DNA from: Nostocaceae cyanobacterium
GTDB taxonomy: Bacteria; Cyanobacteriota; Cyanobacteriia; Cyanobacteriales; Nostocaceae
Direction of reading: 5' to 3'
NCBI GenBank assembly: GCA_035299225.1
Contig: DATGXB010000113.1
Location: 1 to 14,468 of the forward strand
Length of the DNA: 14,468 bases
Positions 1,338-13,394 of the stretch are shown in pieces; positions within the stretch are counted from its first letter, which is position 1, and each line of letters starts with the position of its first letter. A program made the translations under genes and the position numbers. The notes under the pieces were generated by a model. The model ran no database searches, was not told the origin of the DNA, and was given only the letters and a program-made list of their open reading frames with translations.

Positions 1338-1404
1338 TATGTGTAGGGTGGGCATTTTTAGGTGAAATCTGAATTAAAGAGAATTATACTAATAAATGCC
1401 CACC
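1338..1404 (+). repeat. MITE-like hairpin element, copy 1 of 3 (tatgtgtagggtgggcattt ... aaatgcccacc)
   Basis: 11-bp inverted arms ggtgggcattt (1347-1357) and aaatgcccacc (1394-1404) with a 36-nt spacer. The whole ~67 bp aligns by eye to the reverse complements of 5627-5694 and 6219-6286. It covers the GTG at 1362 that opens the long version of the next ORF. Confidence 0.7.
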
Positions 1405-1448
1405 GATTTATATCATTAAAAACACAGCCTTTGTCAAGGATAAAAACT

Positions 1449-2009
1449 ATGCAATCTCCCTTAAATTTCCTCAGTATTGAAGAATACTTAGAAGTAGAAA
1501 AATCTAGTGATATTCGTCATGAATACATAGCCGGACAAGTCTTTGCAATGGCTGGTGCGAGTGAAGAACATAACATAATTGTAGGAAATCTTCTTGCTAT
1601 ATTACGTCCTCATTTACGCGGAAGTTCTTGTCGTGCTTTCGTCTCAGACATGAAAGTAAAAGTTCAGGTAAAAAACGCCGATATCTTTTATTATCCTGAT
1701 ATTTTAGTTACTTGTGATCCTGAAGATAAAGAAAGATATTTTAAAACCCGTCCTAACTTAATTATAGAAGTATTATCTGACTCAACCGCAACCACAGACA
1801 AACGAGAAAAACGCATTAACTACCAAACTTTAGACAGTTTACAAGAATATGTATTAGTGTACCAAAACCAAATCAAAATAGAAATTTATCGTCGAGATGA
1901 TTCGGGAAATTGGTTAATAGAAGTTTTAGGTAAAAATGATAAATTACGGTTAGATTCTGTGGGGTTAAATTTGACAATGGCAGATGTTTACGAAGATGTT
2001 AATCTGTAA
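1449..2009 (+). CDS. Uma2-family (DUF820) putative restriction-endonuclease-like protein
   Basis: Motifs typical of Uma2/DUF820: SIEEYLEVEKSSDIRHEYIAGQVFAMAGASEEHN, YYPDILVTCD, LIIEVLSDSTATTDKREKRINYQ, LQEYVLV. The ORF track starts at GTG 1362, but those 29 extra codons are encoded by the MITE-like repeat. ATG 1449 (MQSPLNFLSIEEY) is the more likely start. Confidence 0.8.
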   Translation: MQSPLNFLSIEEYLEVEKSSDIRHEYIAGQVFAMAGASEEHNIIVGNLLAILRPHLRGSSCRAFVSDMKVKVQVKNADIFYYPDILVTCDPEDKERYFKTRPNLIIEVLSDSTATTDKREKRINYQTLDSLQEYVLVYQNQIKIEIYRRDDSGNWLIEVLGKNDKLRLDSVGLNLTMADVYEDVNL

Positions 2010-2812: not shown

Positions 2813-2842
2813 TTGCTAAACCTTAACCAATAAGGTTAGAAT
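2813..2842 (+). promoter_or_regulatory. Candidate sigma70-type promoter for the 2880 gene (TTGCTA-N18-TAGAAT)
   Basis: ttgcta at 2813-2818 and tagaat at 2837-2842, with an 18-nt spacer, about 38 nt upstream of ATG 2880. This is a pattern match only in AT-rich DNA. Confidence 0.25.
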
Positions 2843-2879: not shown

Positions 2880-3335
2880 ATGGAACCGATAACTCTAGCC
2901 ACAGCCGTAGCAACCCTGATGTTCTCTGAAACCATTAAAGAAACTGGAAAAAACCTTGGACAAGGAATTTCTGAACAAGCAGGACAATTGTTTAATCTGA
3001 TTCGGGAAAGATTTCAACAAGCAGGAACAGAGGGACTTTTAACCAGAACTGAAAAAGACCCCAATGAGAAAAATATCACCAAATTTCAAGACGAGTTAGA
3101 AACCCAATTGCAAGAAGACGAAGATTTTGCTCAACGTGTCCGGGAAATAGTCAAACAGTTAGAACCTGTGGTCAAAAAACGTCAAGTAATGGCTAGTGGA
3201 ATTAAAGTAGACGGAGCATTAGAAGCTGAAAATATGAAACAGAAAGCATCAGAAAGTAGTTCTTCAGAACAGGAAATGTTCACAGACGTAGAAGCAAAAA
3301 GTATTAAACTTGGTAACTTAACTCAAGAAGGCTAA
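2880..3335 (+). CDS. Small helical protein with a hydrophobic N-terminal helix and C-terminal duplicated short motif; candidate Bell/HeLo-like executioner partner of the downstream NB-ARC protein
   Basis: 151-aa ORF. Residues 3-15 (PITLATAVATLMF) are uncharged and hydrophobic. Residues ~17-100 are charged and helix-prone (QDELETQLQEDEDFAQRVREIVKQLE). The tail is QVMASGIKVDGALEAENMKQ, then the linker KASESSSSEQEMFTDVEA, then KSIKLGNLTQEG. The stop at 3333-3335 lies 4 nt before the next ATG. No enzymatic motif was recognised. Confidence 0.55.
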   Translation: MEPITLATAVATLMFSETIKETGKNLGQGISEQAGQLFNLIRERFQQAGTEGLLTRTEKDPNEKNITKFQDELETQLQEDEDFAQRVREIVKQLEPVVKKRQVMASGIKVDGALEAENMKQKASESSSSEQEMFTDVEAKSIKLGNLTQEG

Positions 3336-3339
3336 ACTA

Positions 3340-5208
3340 ATGAACATTCAACCCACTCCCGAACAGATTTTACAAAGCATTCTCAAAAATGTTTCAGTTG
3401 GCGGAAATTTGACCACAGGAGATATTACCCAAATTCTCAATTTATGGGTTGTTATTGAACAACAAGATATTTTTACATCAAAAGAAATTCCCCAAAATAT
3501 CCCCCGCAGTGACATCATTAAATTTGTGGGACGTGCTGAAGTTTTAGTGAACTTGCATAAAAAGCTACAAAATACCTCTGTAATTGCTGTTCAGGGAATG
3601 GGAGGACTAGGAAAAACTGAGTTAGCAACACAGTATGCACTCATTCACCTATTACTCAAAACCTATCCAGGGGGAATTTGTTGGTTACGCGCTGGAAAAG
3701 AAAATATAAATATAGGGACTCAGATTTTACAATTTGCTACAACTAAATTAGGACTTAAGCTGCCAGACAATTTGGACGCAGTTAAACAAGTTGATTACTG
3801 TTGGTCAAATTGGCGACGAGATGGGGATGTGTTAATAGTTTTGGATGATGTTACAGACTATCAAAGTGTAAAACCTTATTTACCGCCAGCATCACTAAAG
3901 TTTAAATTACTAATTACTTCTAGACTACAGTTAGATTCACCACAGTCTATTTCTTTAAATTTTTTGGATGAGTCACCAGCATTGGAACTGTTACAAACTT
4001 GGGTAGGGGAAAAGGTCACGCAAGAATTAGAAACAGCAAAAGAACTTTGTGAGTTTTTAGGTTATTTACCTTTAGCTTTAAACTTAGTAGGCAGGTACAT
4101 TAAAAAGCGTAATATTTCTTTAGCGAAAATGTTGCGGAGATTAGAGAAAGAAAAGATTACTCATCAAGCCCTAGCCAGAAATGAAAAAGACCCTACTTGG
4201 ACATTAAATGTAAATTCAGGTGTAATTGCAGCTTTTGAATTAAGTTGGTCAGAATTAAGTGATGATGCTAAAGAATTAGCAGTTTTACTCAGTTTATTTG
4301 CTTTAGCACCTATTCCTTGGTCATTAGTTGAAAAGGTAAAAACGGTCAGAGATGTAGAACAGTTGGAAGATAGCCGAATAGAATTAGAAAATTTACACCT
4401 GCTGCAAAGTAAAGAAAATTATGAATTACATCCATTAATTCGCCAATTTTTTCAACTTAAGCAGAATGAAATAAACGAAACGGAAGAATTAAAACGCGCC
4501 TTTTGCCAAACAATGGTAGAAGTTGCAAAGAAAATTCCTGACACAATCACTCTACAACAAGTTACTGATATTTCTCCTCAACTACCACACATAGCAGAAG
4601 TAGCAAACAATCTCATTGAATATGTCAGCGATAATGATTTAATCTGGCCTTTCTGGGGTAATGTTACATTTTACAAAGATCAGGGGTTATATGCTCAAGC
4701 TTTACCTTGGTGTCAGCAATGTCTAGAGACCACTAAACAAAGCTTGGGAGAAGAACATCCCGACTTTGCCACTAGCCTGAACAATTTGGCGTTCCTCTAC
4801 AACTCACAAGGCAGATACAGTGAAGCAGAACCCCTGTATCGGCAAGCATTGGAACTGAGGCGACGGGTGCTGGGAGAAGAACATCCCGACTTTGCCACTA
4901 GCCTGAACAATTTGGCGTTACTCTACTCCTCACAAGGCAGATACAGTGAAGCAGAACCCCTGTATCGGCAAGCATTGGAACTCTGGCGACGGGTGCTGGG
5001 AGAAGAACATCCCGACTTTGCCACTAGCCTGAACAATTTGGCGGGACTCTACGACTCACAAGGCAGATACAGTGAAGCAGAACCCCTGTATCGGCAAGCA
5101 TTGGAGATTTGCGAAAAAAGTTTAGGGGTAAATCATCCGCACACGGTTACTGTTAGTGAAAATTTGCAAATCTGCCAACAAGCTTTAGATAAATTATCAA
5201 ATCAATAA
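3340..5208 (+). CDS. NB-ARC (AP-ATPase/STAND) NTPase with C-terminal TPR repeats; bacterial NLR-like protein
   Basis: 622-aa ORF. NB-ARC motifs are FVGR (aa 62-65), Walker A GMGGLGKT (aa 86-93, nt 3595-3618), Walker B VLIVLDD (164-170), LLITSR (190-195) and the GLPL-type motif GYLPLAL (241-247). The C-terminus has three near-identical 42-aa TPR units (LGEEHPDFATSLNNLAxLYxSQGRYSEAEPLYRQALEL). Only ~55 aa precede the NTPase, so there is no effector domain. GAAGG (3327-3331) lies 8 nt upstream of the ATG. Confidence 0.9.
   Translation: MNIQPTPEQILQSILKNVSVGGNLTTGDITQILNLWVVIEQQDIFTSKEIPQNIPRSDIIKFVGRAEVLVNLHKKLQNTSVIAVQGMGGLGKTELATQYALIHLLLKTYPGGICWLRAGKENINIGTQILQFATTKLGLKLPDNLDAVKQVDYCWSNWRRDGDVLIVLDDVTDYQSVKPYLPPASLKFKLLITSRLQLDSPQSISLNFLDESPALELLQTWVGEKVTQELETAKELCEFLGYLPLALNLVGRYIKKRNISLAKMLRRLEKEKITHQALARNEKDPTWTLNVNSGVIAAFELSWSELSDDAKELAVLLSLFALAPIPWSLVEKVKTVRDVEQLEDSRIELENLHLLQSKENYELHPLIRQFFQLKQNEINETEELKRAFCQTMVEVAKKIPDTITLQQVTDISPQLPHIAEVANNLIEYVSDNDLIWPFWGNVTFYKDQGLYAQALPWCQQCLETTKQSLGEEHPDFATSLNNLAFLYNSQGRYSEAEPLYRQALELRRRVLGEEHPDFATSLNNLALLYSSQGRYSEAEPLYRQALELWRRVLGEEHPDFATSLNNLAGLYDSQGRYSEAEPLYRQALEICEKSLGVNHPHTVTVSENLQICQQALDKLSNQ
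4746..5105 (+). repeat. Tandem 126-bp repeat (2.9 copies) encoding 42-aa TPR units inside the NB-ARC gene
   Basis: Units start at 4746, 4872 and 4998. The DNA is identical except at codons 4792-4794/4918-4920/5044-5046 (ttc/tta/gga), codons 4801-4803/4927-4929/5053-5055 (aac/tcc/gac), and ctg agg versus ctc tgg near the ends of units 1 and 2. Confidence 0.95.
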
Positions 5209-5313: not shown

Positions 5314-5334
5314 GGACATGGCATTGCCGTGTCC
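5314..5334. terminator. Palindromic hairpin between convergent genes (candidate bidirectional terminator; GTAGGGACA-type dispersed palindrome)
   Basis: ggacatggc-att-gccgtgtcc forms a 9-bp stem with one G-T wobble and a 3-nt loop. It is preceded by gtag. It abuts the DUF433 stop (5337-5339) and sits about 105 nt after the NB-ARC stop. There is no clean U-tract on the + strand. On the - strand a T7 run follows about 25 nt later. Confidence 0.35.
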
Positions 5335-5829: not shown

Positions 5830-6114
5830 ATGACATTAACAGAAATTTTACCCTCACTGCAAAAATTATCTCATCAAGAAAAAATTCAAGCCATTCAATT
5901 TTTAGCCTCAGAATTAGCTCAAGAAGCGCAAAATTTAGCAACAGAATCACTTGAGTATGGTGAGATAGATACAGAATTAAATTTTCAGCTTCTTAGTGAA
6001 AAAGACATGATTGAACAAAGCAAATCTGCTTTAGAAGCTTACCTCAGTGCAGGTTCAGGAGTCAAACATGAGCAAATCCAGAAATGGGCAAATAGTTTAA
6101 TAATTCAACAATAA
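5830..6114 (+). CDS. Putative type II antitoxin (addiction-module-component-like)
   Basis: 94-aa acidic ORF with an N-terminal LPSLQKLSHQEKIQAIQFLASEL helix pattern, as seen in small addiction-module antitoxins. A ParE/RelE-type toxin N-terminus follows 5 nt later. The family assignment rests on context and pattern only. Confidence 0.5.
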   Translation: MTLTEILPSLQKLSHQEKIQAIQFLASELAQEAQNLATESLEYGEIDTELNFQLLSEKDMIEQSKSALEAYLSAGSGVKHEQIQKWANSLIIQQ

Positions 6115-6376: not shown

Positions 6377-8953
6377 TTAGCCAACAACAAAATTAACCAA
6401 CTTCCCAGGAACAACAATTACCTTCTTAATCTCCTTACCCTCAATATACTTCTGTGCTATCTCCGATTCACGCGCAAATTTTTCCAACTCATCCTTACTT
6501 GCTTGTGCTGGGACTTGAATCGCACCGCGAGTTTTACCCAAAACCTGAATTACTAAAGTAATTTCATCTGCTATTAAAGCCGCAGGATCAAAAGCTGGCC
6601 AACTTACTTGATGCACTGATTCCCCATTACCTAATAAATGCCATAACTCATCGGCAATATGGGGAGCAAAAGGTGCTAACATAATGACTAATGTTTTAAT
6701 CCCCTCCCCATAAACGGCGGAATTTTTACAATCAGCATCGGTTAAAGCATTACTTAATTTCATCAACTCAGATATAGCTGTATTGAATTGATATTCATCT
6801 TCTACATCTTCGGTTACGGCTTTAATTGCTGTGTGAATTGCCCGTTTTAAATCTTTCTCAGATTTACTTAAATCACCATTTTTGGTTGTTTTAGGAACGC
6901 CGCCATTAATACAATCTGTTACCAACCGCCAAACCCGATTTAAAAAGCGGAATTGCCCCTCTACATCAGCCTCATTCCATTCTAAATCTTTTTCTGGTGG
7001 GGCTTTAAATAAAATGAACATCCGCGCTGTATCTATGCCATATTTACTAATGACATCTTCCGGGGCAACACCATTGCCTTTTGATTTGGACATGGTAGCA
7101 TAAAGACACTGTAAAGGTTCTCCGGTTTGCGGATCACGGGGGTTATTAGGATCTACTAAATGAGAAGGAATCCATTTATCTTTACCGGATTTATTCGGGT
7201 TCATGTAAGTTAAACCCTGTACCATGCCTTGAGTTAAAAGCCGTTGGAAGGGTTCATCAAAATTCAATAAACCTCTATCTCTTAATACTTTGGTAAAGAA
7301 ACGAGAATACAATAAATGTAAAATCGCGTGTTCTACTCCCCCCACATATTGATCTACAGGCATCCAATCATTTACTTTGGCTGAATCAAATACCTGATTG
7401 GCATTTTTAGCATCGGGATAACGCAAGAAATACCAGGAGGAATCTATAAAAGTATCCATTGTGTCTGTTTCCCGTTTGGCTGGTGTGCCACAGGTGGGAC
7501 AGGGAACATTTACCCAGTTTTCTAACTGTGCTAAGGGTGAAGCACCACGACCAGTAAATTCTACTTCTTCTGGTAATAATACGGGTAAATCTTCATCTGG
7601 TACAGGTACGACACCACAGTTAGGACAGTGAATAACGGGAATAGGTGCACCCCAATATCTCTGACGGGATATTAACCAATCTCGGAGGCGATACTGTACC
7701 CGCACTTTACCAAAACCTTGTTGTTCGGCGTATTCGGTGATCGCTTGTTTGGCTTCTGTGGAGTTTTTACCGTTAAATTGTTGGGAATTAATTAATATTC
7801 CGGGTTCGGTGTAAGCTGCGGTTAAAATTGGTGTTTCTTCTAGGTTGGCGGTTTCGGGAACTATTACTACTTGGATGGGTAAATTTTGTTCTTGGGCAAA
7901 TTTAAAGTCTCTGACATCATGGGCAGGAACTCCCATTACTGCGCCAGTTCCATATTCATACAATACATAATCAGCGACCCAAATGGGTACTTCTGCCCCG
8001 GTAAAGGGGTTAATGGCTTTGCCACCGGTGGCTATACCCCGTTTTGGTCTGTCTTCGGCGGTGCGTTCTATTTCGCTTTGGTTGGTGACTTCTTGAACGA
8101 AGCTATCAACGGCAGCTTTTTGTTCTGGGGTGGTTACTAATGCGGTTAAGGGGTGTTCTGGGGCTAAAACAACGTAACTCACACCATATACTGTATCGGG
8201 ACGGGTGGTGTAAACGCCTATTTTTTCTTCTCTCCCCACAATGGGAAATTCTAAATAAGCACCGACGGATTTTCCGATCCAGTTGGCTTGCATTAATTTG
8301 ACTTTTTCTGGCCAACCGGGTAATTTATCCAAGTCGTTTAATAATTCTTCGGCGTAGTCGGTGATTTTAAAGAACCATTGCCGTAGTAATTTGCGTTCCA
8401 CTTTGGCCCCACTGCGCCAAGAACGGCCTTCGCTGTCTACCTGTTCGTTAGCTAATACGGTTTGGTCTATTGGGTCCCAGTTAACTGCGGCTTCTTTTTG
8501 ATAGGCTAATCCGGCTTGTAAAAATTGCAGGAATATCCATTGTGTCCATTTATAATAATCTGGGGAACAGGTAGCAATTTCTGCTTCCCAGTCTAAGGAG
8601 AAACCCAGACGCTGTAATTGTTTCCGCATCTGGTCAATATTTTGATATGTCCATTTGGCGGGAGGAATGCCCCGGTCAATGGCGGCGTTTTCGGCGGGTA
8701 GTCCAAAGGCATCCCAACCCATTGGATGTAACACCCGATACCCCTGCATTCGCTTGAGGCGGGCAATTACGTCTGTAATGGCGTAGTTACGGACGTGCCC
8801 CATGTGTAGGCTACCGGATGGGTAGGGAAACATGGAAAGGGTGTAAAATTTTGGCTTGTTTTGATCTTGAGGGGTACGATCTAAGCCAAGTTCTGACCAT
8901 TTACTCTGCCATTTTTCCTCTATTGCGGCTGGGTTGTATCGGGATTCCACCAA
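6377..8953 (-). CDS. leuS: Leucine--tRNA ligase
   Basis: 858-aa ORF. It starts [19 protein letters not shown], has the class I HIGH motif as [15 protein letters not shown] and the KMSKS motif as TMSKSKGN, plus an editing-domain-sized insertion. The length is typical of bacterial LeuRS. Confidence 0.97.
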
Positions 8954-12941: not shown

Positions 12942-13394
12942 CTATTCCAGGGTAATTACATAAAAAATATTGATACTATTACCAACAAATTTTAAAGCTT
13001 GCTGAGGATATGTCACCACTGCGTCACCAATGCCTTTGCGGTAGTTGGTTAGCCTGGTTTGATTTTCTAAGTGCCCCTGACAATACTTTTTATCTAATTT
13101 CTTGAATGATCTAAAAGATTCGGCAACTGAATTTAAAATCCTTTGCACTGCTTGAGAATACAAAACTTGATAGTGATTGTTAGCTTTGTATTCTTTTTCT
13201 AAATCAAATTTGCCGATGATTTGTCCAGTCTTAAAAAATAGCTGACGAGTATAGTAAATACTACTGTTTGTCAGCTTGTAAGATTCAGAACAAATAAACT
13301 CAAGAATTGCTTTTAAATCTTCATTTAGATTAATCAGATTTTGTTGGCATCCGTATAATTTAGTCACCTCCTTACTAAAATGTAATGATAACAT
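12942..13394 (-). pseudogene. tnpB: Truncated N-terminal fragment of an IS200/IS605-family TnpB (OrfB/IS1341-type) gene
   Basis: 150-aa ORF. The stretch CSESYKLTNSSIYYTRQLFF ... YSQAVQRILNSVAESFRSFKKLDKKYCQGHLENQTRLTNYRKGIGDAVVTYPQQALKF fits the TnpB N-terminal pattern (SKNLYNxANYxxRQ ... AQQxL ... WKSFF ... PKLPxYxKK ... QAxK). Key residues are degraded. The RuvC (GIDLG) and zinc-finger parts are absent (full length is ~400 aa), and no tnpA is present. Confidence 0.6.

Follow-up and report, generated by a model that had tools for sequence, protein, structure and literature searches.

A Bell-BASS4/NLR-type gene pair, a putative amyloid-signalling module, in a Nostocaceae cyanobacterium

Two adjacent genes of a Nostocaceae cyanobacterium (contig DATGXB010000113.1) most probably form one operon-like unit encoding an amyloid-signalling module of the Bell-BASS4/NLR type (NLR, NOD-like receptor). 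The analysis covered a stretch of 14,468 nt, called the window below, and all positions are given within it. The first gene (2880..3335, plus strand, ATG start) codes for a protein of 151 aa, the presumed executioner, whose homologues appear as Bell proteins in Dyrka et al. (2020, Table S2). The second gene (3340..5208, plus strand, ATG start) codes for an NB-ARC/TPR protein of 622 aa, a sensor of the NLR type. The TAA stop codon of the small gene (3333-3335) is followed by four nucleotides (ACTA) and then by the ATG of the NLR gene at 3340. A Shine-Dalgarno-like GAAGG (3327..3331, plus strand, read from the sequence) lies within the final codons of the small gene, 8 nt before this ATG. This arrangement of two open reading frames (ORFs) had been described correctly in an initial annotation made from the DNA letters, which also proposed a pair of the Bell/BASS or HET-S/NWD2 type and raised the question whether the small protein falls into an already described Bell family. 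The proposal is supported by catalogued homologues and by a motif shared between the two proteins, which the annotation had not noticed. The question can be answered with yes: judged by its homologues with bass_04/cya_02 labels, the small protein is a member of the described Bell family and not of a new executioner family.

According to Dyrka et al. (2020, 10.1101/2020.01.06.895854), a Bell domain consists of about 100 aa in helical structure; its N-terminal helix is hydrophobic, and residue 2 or 3 is acidic. The same work describes ten families of BASS motifs, each of which occurs both at the C-termini of Bell proteins and at the N-termini of the NB-ARC or NACHT proteins encoded next to them (10.1101/2020.01.06.895854). 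BASS motifs form prions and fibrils, as its authors showed for BASS1 and BASS3 only. BASS4 often occurs in more than one copy in the Bell protein, a feature shared with HET-s (PMC8086366). Three pairs in Table S2 of Dyrka et al. (2020) carry the label bass_04/cya_02: OYD94771.1/OYD94772.1, OYE01065.1/OYE01066.1 and BAZ20404.1/BAZ20405.1. Three of the homologues that we retrieved (L013, L012 and L039) match these pairs by motif strings and organisms, the latter being Nostoc ‘Peltigera cyanobiont’ 210A and 232 and Scytonema sp. NIES-4073 (L039 = BAZ20404.1/BAZ20405.1). The closest full pair to that of the window is L013, with 64% identity in the helical domain and 68% in the nucleotide-binding oligomerization domain (NOD). 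Over residues 1-100, the homologues, including these three, show 50-64% identity. Since no Bell-named family was returned by the profile libraries, the Bell link rests on the catalogued homologues, and as their pairs are listed as bass_04/cya_02, we regard the window pair as a further Bell-BASS4/NB-ARC-TPR member. The class BASS4 was assigned from the labels of the homologous pairs and from the two Bell-side pseudo-repeats.

The window pair shares with the cyanobacterial Bell/BASS4 pairs its gene order, the spacing of a few nucleotides, two pseudo-repeats on the Bell side and a filamentous cyanobacterial host; the NLR-side motifs are near-identical (ILQSILQNVQVGGNLTTGNITQ versus ILQSILKNVSVGGNLTTGDITQ). 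An NB-ARC or NACHT gene with TPR or WD repeats is expected within 5 kb of a Bell gene and usually collinear with it; here it lies 4 nt downstream on the same strand.

The shared motif is present once in the NLR and twice in the small protein. The NLR-side copy, R0, comprises residues 12-32 (QSILKNVSVGGNLTTGDITQI; 3373..3435, plus strand); it was located with a Bell-side r1 matrix (see below) and is conserved in the N-termini of 40 partner proteins. On the Bell side, pseudo-repeat r1 extends over residues 102-122 (21 aa, QVMASGIKVDGALEAENMKQK; 3183..3245, plus strand), as seen in the alignments and in the strands predicted by AlphaFold2, and shares its 21-residue register with the NLR motif. 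Pseudo-repeat r2 (residues 131-150, 20 aa, QEMFTDVEAKSIKLGNLTQE; 3270..3329, plus strand) follows eight residues later (the spacer being residues 123-130) and was located with a matrix of NLR-side 20-mers. Two C-terminal pseudo-repeats are seen across the small-protein family. Near residues 10-30, all 40 distinct partners with a P-loop carry the pattern Q-x-phi-phi-x-N-V-x-phi-x(1-2)-[GR]-[ND]-phi-x-phi-G-x-phi-x-Q. The motif, 20-21 residues long and located within the first ~35 residues of the window NLR, can be written as Q-x-phi-phi-x-N-V-x-phi-x-G-N-phi-x-phi-G-[DN]-phi-[ST]-Q. The consensus sequences in register are QKIFENVQAGGNITVGNITQ for R0, QVVLSEIELTGDLKAKDISQ for r1 and QEMLKGVKATNIDVGNLNQ for r2, the last being shorter by one residue. 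R0 and r1 agree at the Q ends, at the hydrophobic positions and in the central G-[ND], while r2 corresponds to shorter NLR variants such as QSAFENVQARDITVGSITQ. The roughly 60 residues before the NTPase contain no recognised effector, as had been noted initially, but they are not empty.

On Bell C-termini, a HMMER profile of the NLR motif scored 2-8 bits in the correct register. As this was too weak, the profile was replaced by ungapped position-specific scoring matrices (PSSMs) with an empirical null. The PSSMs were built from one side of the pair in other genomes, with the window excluded, and applied to the other side; the null consisted of about 322,000 (321,948) 21-mers from reversed ORFs. 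When the PSSM from 49 Bell-side r1 sequences was run over the window NLR (622 aa, 602 positions), the top position was residues 12-32 with 26.0 bits, compared with 1.9 bits for the next one and a null maximum of 15.6 bits. Conversely, the PSSM from 12 NLR-side 20-mers placed its top match in the window small protein at residues 131-150 with 23.3 bits (next 3.5, null maximum 17.6). A motif common to the Bell C-terminus and the NLR N-terminus is therefore found at the level of family profiles, and we take the cross-side PSSMs as decisive for it.

Conservation of the pair was examined in related genomes. A search of 5.8 billion proteins gave 25 clusters, all of 151-154 aa, and every one with a named source came from a Nostocales cyanobacterium; a hypothetical protein from a Nostocaceae metagenome-assembled genome matches the small protein at 100%. 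A profile search of 1.84 billion representatives yielded 411 matches at E <= 0.001, mostly of 120-165 aa. A scan with one genome per species revealed 73 loci, nearly all from filamentous or aggregate-forming cyanobacteria. From each locus, the small ORF was extracted together with the next ORF on the same strand; the small protein is full-length in 61 loci, counting the window, and these were used for the analysis of linkage. A collinear downstream ORF of at least 100 aa is present in 58 of the 61; it begins 2-5 nt past the stop codon in 42 loci, and in 41 a strict P-loop (GxxGxGK[ST]) is found at about residues 81-117 of the partner. From the 58 collinear loci and the 42 with a spacing of 2-5 nt, the two-gene arrangement is judged not to be due to chance. 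The flanks show no synteny across the 73 related loci, except for one Uma2 paralogue. Because they differ between loci, the pair can be said to travel as a unit through different neighbourhoods. Homologues that are genomically unlinked in other genomes, which would have spoken against a functional pair, are thus not the rule: order and spacing are kept in dozens of genomes.

The small protein begins with MEPITLATAVATLMF. In the AlphaFold2 model, for which the alignment of 25 sequences was used as input (mean predicted local distance difference test score, pLDDT, 79.7; predicted template modelling score 0.62), helices are predicted at residues 3-15, 17-22, 28-47, 51-59, 63-79 and 81-98, with pLDDT values of 86-94 over residues 31-90. 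These helices delimit the Bell-type helical domain (residues 1-98; 2880..3173, plus strand). Hydrophobic helix 1 (residues 2-15, EPITLATAVATLMF; 2883..2924, plus strand) is supported by the alignment, by the predicted helix at 3-15 and by hydropathy. The only hydrophobic stretch of the protein is residues 1-19, and the Kyte-Doolittle maximum for 13 residues (1.81) is reached at residues 4-16. Met-1 and Glu-2 are invariant across the 25 homologues, and the N-terminal helix is conserved in the family alignment. The region begins with MEPIT and has an acidic residue 2, as in the ‘MEPIS’ motif, a name given to an N-terminal region that is conserved in Bell, Hell and Bab and in some antiphage NLRs (10.1101/2024.11.07.622273). 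At 151 aa, and with about 100 residues in its helical domain, hydrophobic helix 1 at the N-terminus and Glu as residue 2, the protein shows the features by which Bell proteins are recognized (about 120-150 aa, the acidic residue being at position 2 or 3).

The C-terminal part is different. Strand sets are predicted at residues 101-122 and 130-150, with an identical internal pattern and an offset of about 29 residues; in the model this pattern is compatible with two stacked rungs. The initial description of an uncharged N-terminal helix and of a protein without a catalytic motif stands, whereas the helical body that it described ends at about residue 98 and the last 50 residues form two predicted β-strand pseudo-repeats. 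No Pfam, NCBIfam or PADLOC family scored above its cut-off for the small protein, so that homology to a curated housekeeping family was not found, and Pfam gave no HeLo or Hell match at E <= 1. Matches to PriC, GvpT and MG_279 from the same three libraries were rejected, being far below the cut-offs.

The large protein has an NB-ARC module (PF00931, residues 72-274, E 2e-14; 3553..4161, plus strand), as had been recognized from its motifs at the outset. All of these could be located on the plus strand within the Pfam match: Walker A GMGGLGKT (residues 86-93; 3595-3618), Walker B VLIVLDD (residues 164-170; 3829-3849), LLITSR in the sensor-I region (residues 190-195; 3907-3924) and the GLPL-type GYLPLAL (residues 241-247; 4060-4080). 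The protein is thus a STAND (signal transduction ATPase with numerous domains) NTPase of the NB-ARC type. LHPLIRQF (4426-4449, plus strand) may be an MHD-like motif, a label that is our own reading and not the result of a tool. Pfam revealed neither a DNA-binding domain nor a fused effector.

The TPR sensor, too, is confirmed by Pfam (TPR_12, E 6.6e-68; TPR_10, E 3.7e-62), with the repeat region at residues ~443-600 (4666..5139, plus strand). It includes three near-identical TPR units of 126 nt (42 aa) each (4745..5105, plus strand; Tandem Repeats Finder: period 126, 2.9 copies, 96% matches). Most differences between the units are non-synonymous, and the variable unit positions are 16, 19 and 36-42; between units 1 and 2 there are only five nucleotide differences, three of them non-synonymous (unit positions 16, 19 and 38). 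Repeats with high internal conservation are frequent in NLRs of bacteria and fungi (10.1101/2020.01.06.895854), and the pattern in the window resembles such repeats, which are presumably fast-diversifying.

By analogy with HET-S/NWD2 and Bab/Agp, we infer the steps by which the module could act, from amyloid templating through membrane attack to its biological role. A ligand would be recognised by the near-identical, presumably fast-evolving TPR units, leading to nucleotide-dependent oligomerisation of the NLR. Oligomerisation would cluster the R0 segments, which could then adopt a cross-β fold and template r1 and r2 into a two-rung β-solenoid-like amyloid. This refolding may free helix 1 from the helical bundle for insertion into the membrane, and the cell would be killed or arrested. 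The purpose might be abortive infection or another non-self response within the filament. On the same grounds Bell-BASS4/NLR modules of cyanobacteria are thought to trigger cell suicide. For the window pair, the role in death or immunity and the toxicity to membranes that were proposed initially would likewise follow from relatives, HET-S in fungi and Bab/Agp in E. coli. Bab/Agp is the experimentally shown case of an amyloid-triggered abortive-infection system (10.1101/2024.11.07.622273).

Fusions to TIR_2, a DUF676 esterase or EAD4 occur among the relatives of the small protein and would support a role in conflict systems. The distant relatives P0066, P0085, P0136, P0162, P0090 and P0092 combine the Bell-BASS region, or only its C-terminal part, with a TIR_2, DUF676 serine esterase, EAD4 or GUN4-like domain. 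The GUN4-like fusion is unexpected for a death module.

A number of results weigh against an amyloid-signalling module. Within the window, a Smith-Waterman comparison of the small-protein C-terminus with the NLR N-terminus was not significant, since 839 of 5000 shuffles reached its score. The HMMER profile of the NLR motif gave 2.2 bits on the window small protein, and its r1 is degenerate, with 3.7 bits by the PSSM of NLR-side 21-mers. With pairwise and HMMER scores this weak, the motif match in the window becomes visible only via the family PSSMs, and because the pairwise test was not significant we do not claim the window pair alone as proof of the motif. The AlphaFold2 model is that of a monomer and as such is no evidence of amyloid formation. 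A Foldseek search of the Protein Data Bank (PDB) with this model returned nothing at E <= 0.001 (best E 0.73) and no match to HeLo, MLKL, CC or another pore former. The CC domain of Rx, at ranks 3 and 5, was rejected as evidence (E 0.9-2.2, TM-score ~0.2). With no significant match, membership in the HeLo/MLKL/CC superfamily at the level of the fold cannot be claimed. A sequence search of the PDB with the family profile also gave nothing meaningful, the best match being a designed cage protein (E 0.099). No Bab entry was among the 6 sequence matches and 50 fold-search matches listed, and whether the PDB copy holds the Bab(1-90) structure was not established. PADLOC produced no Avs or NLR defence match for the NLR, but only a generic TPR match and weak ones above 0.001, and there is no defence island round the pair within the window, where the neighbours are ordinary genes. 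We know of no experiment on BASS4 or on a Bell/NLR pair from any cyanobacterium. What Bell/NLR pairs do has been said to ‘remain to be elucidated’ (10.1101/2024.11.07.622273). According to the same preprint, folds of the HeLo/MLKL/CC type vary widely beyond helix 1 (10.1101/2024.11.07.622273).

Among other explanations, the nearest is that the two proteins are functionally linked but form no amyloid: the motif would mediate a stoichiometric heterodimer through β-strands or a β-solenoid, with the small protein bound to the resting NLR as its adaptor, inhibitor or chaperone. The compact two-layer strand arrangement into which AlphaFold2 folds r1 and r2 within one monomer (pLDDT 60-82) would suit such a complex, as would a helical domain with no detectable structural similarity to pore formers and the low pairwise identity of the motifs in the window. 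We nevertheless consider it improbable. Representatives of other BASS families, identified by an equal genomic criterion, form fibrils and prions; the composition of the motif (Q, N, G, V, I), its length of 20-21 residues and the two-plus-one layout of the repeats fit motifs of the HET-s type; and helix 1 with its invariant Glu-2 is a conserved feature of the membrane-targeting domains of Bell, Hell and MLKL. Far less credible still, and in our opinion hardly worth maintaining, is an incidental adjacency of an unrelated or housekeeping small ORF and a stand-alone regulator similar to AfsR or MalT. The NLR has partial, sub-threshold NCBIfam matches to AfsR-like and FxSxx TPR proteins and the small protein has no curated family, but the NLR lacks a DNA-binding domain, gene order and the 2-5 nt spacing are kept in dozens of genomes despite differing flanks, and the motif match across the two sides is highly specific. 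Cross-side PSSMs and conserved linkage effectively refute it.

A further alternative retains the amyloid mechanism and changes its role: the pair might serve developmental or allorecognition cell death in or between filaments, or might be triggered not by phage but by something non-viral, for instance a metabolite or stress. Bell/BASS pairs are enriched in multicellular prokaryotes and were tied by their authors to multicellularity (Dyrka et al., 2020), the fungal HET-S paradigm acts in allorecognition, and the window offers neither a defence island nor a prophage context. We hold this to be rather unlikely, although distinctly less so than the absence of amyloid, because the sole bacterial amyloid-signalling pair that has been tested, Bab/Agp, acts in antiphage abortive infection. 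The TIR and EAD4 fusions of relatives are typical of conflict systems, the variable genomic location is as expected of accessory defence genes, and near-identical TPR units varying at a few positions resemble diversifying immune receptors.

Turning back to the proposed Bell-BASS4/NLR module, the comparison with characterized systems shows how far the likeness extends. In HET-S/NWD2 of Podospora anserina (motif HRAM), an NLR with a single N-terminal R0 adjoins a helical membrane-targeting effector with two C-terminal pseudo-repeats of about 21 residues. The layout of two pseudo-repeats on the effector and one on the NLR is found in the window pair as well, whereas a HeLo pore-forming domain is not. 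NWD2 is a NACHT/WD protein while the window NLR is of the NB-ARC/TPR type, the motifs belong to different sequence families, the host is bacterial, and homology to HeLo is undetectable by Pfam or fold search. The resemblance is thus one of working logic and not of membership. In Bab/Agp (BASS11, E. coli ECOR25; 10.1101/2024.11.07.622273), amyloid-triggered cell death on phage infection has been shown experimentally. The ‘Babybell’ domain of Bab is shorter (~80 aa), and only one BASS11 motif is present; the system is located in prophage defence hotspots, unlike the window pair, which is surrounded by ordinary genes. The antiphage STAND NTPases of the Avs/AVAST and bNACHT types have a STAND NTPase and a repeat sensor in common with the window NLR, and some of them have an N-terminal region of the MEPIS type (10.1101/2024.11.07.622273). 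In these proteins the effector is fused to the NTPase in one polypeptide and there is no amyloid motif; the window NLR has no such fusion, and no Avs/AVAST profile of PADLOC identified it.

The two parts of the window small protein point to different relatives. Residues 1-100 are closest to L013 and L014 (64%), whose NLRs are also the closest (68-69%). The C-terminal repeat cassette, unlike that of Nostoc 210A (type KGKAKVGDINL..GNVNMKA), is of the type found in L001-L005 (RQVMASGIE..GNLTQES); the genomic neighbourhood differs from that of 210A, too. As helical domain and cassette indicate different subfamilies, the gene looks like a mosaic or recombinant of two Bell subfamilies, which suggests that motif cassettes have been exchanged between Bell genes.

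Not all partners of small-protein homologues are NLRs. In L001 (4460-4969) and likewise in L002, L003, L005 and L052, whose small proteins are closest over the full length, the gene located 3-4 nt downstream encodes a protein of 168-171 aa and no NLR. Partners of this type have a BASS4-like N-terminus (e.g. ALENVSVGGNLSIGQLQQI) and no Pfam domain. In L007 (4467-6665), L010 (4464-6251), L006, L045 and L009, the motif is followed by a hydrophobic stretch, which may be membrane-spanning, and then by many TPR_1/TPR_2 repeats; neither a NOD nor a P-loop is present. With such a partner, the same executioner family would be served by a sensor other than an NLR. A third type, in L036 (4471-7119), L027 (4471-7074), L061 and L062, comprises partners of 868-883 aa with a divergent N-terminal motif (e.g. 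AFKDVEVGRDFNFEGDINQ), only weak HEAT-repeat matches and no recognised NTPase. The non-NLR partners sit at a spacing of 3-5 nt, like the NB-ARC/TPR NLRs. We tentatively suggest, without regarding it as the probable outcome, that the Bell-BASS4 family is a common executioner ‘socket’ for very different sensors, which would connect through the shared N-terminal motif. If this were so, and if the window gene is recombinant, C-terminal motif cassettes and sensors would be exchanged in a modular way, and some of the non-NLR partners could represent undescribed classes of sensors or decoys of amyloid signalling.

Fungal, animal and bacterial cell-death pathways show a striking parallel in amyloid signalling from an NLR to a separately encoded helical executioner, which in cyanobacteria is known solely from genome mining. 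The locus described here is a clean and compact example, with one operon of 2.3 kb and three motif copies, and might serve as a test case for BASS4. It reveals no new principle, and the founding catalogue of the family already lists very close relatives; what goes beyond this catalogue, the mosaic small protein and the non-NLR partners in other genomes, is minor.

Upstream of the small gene, at a distance of 38 nt, there is a σ70-like promoter match (TTGCTA-18-TAGAAT; 2813..2842, plus strand) with 9 of 12 matching positions, which is weak evidence: promoter-like sites are not enriched in the region (11 versus 8.3 ± 2.9 expected from shuffled sequences), and the terminator scan was likewise at chance level. 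A near-perfect palindrome (GGACATGGCATTGCCGTGTCC, 5314-5334) follows the NLR stop codon at a distance of about 100 nt; it has no trailing T-run and was not called by the terminator scan.

The genes around the pair encode, according to Pfam, an aldo/keto reductase, a Uma2 protein, a DUF1499 protein, a GGACT-family protein, an ECF sigma factor with an anti-sigma factor, a YkuD transpeptidase and ComFB. A further ORF of 858 aa (6377-8953) was not scanned with profiles and is, from its translation, presumably leucyl-tRNA synthetase. Two ORFs, of 94 aa (5830-6114, plus strand) and 150 aa (12942-13394, minus strand), have no Pfam match at E <= 0.001 and no evident link to the pair. The gene for the Uma2-family putative endonuclease (1362-2009, plus strand; PF05685, E 8e-36) is located about 870 nt upstream of the pair, with the DUF1499 gene on the opposite strand in between. 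A Uma2 gene with 58% identity is also present upstream of the pair in L019, which may be a coincidence, as the family is multi-copy in cyanobacteria.

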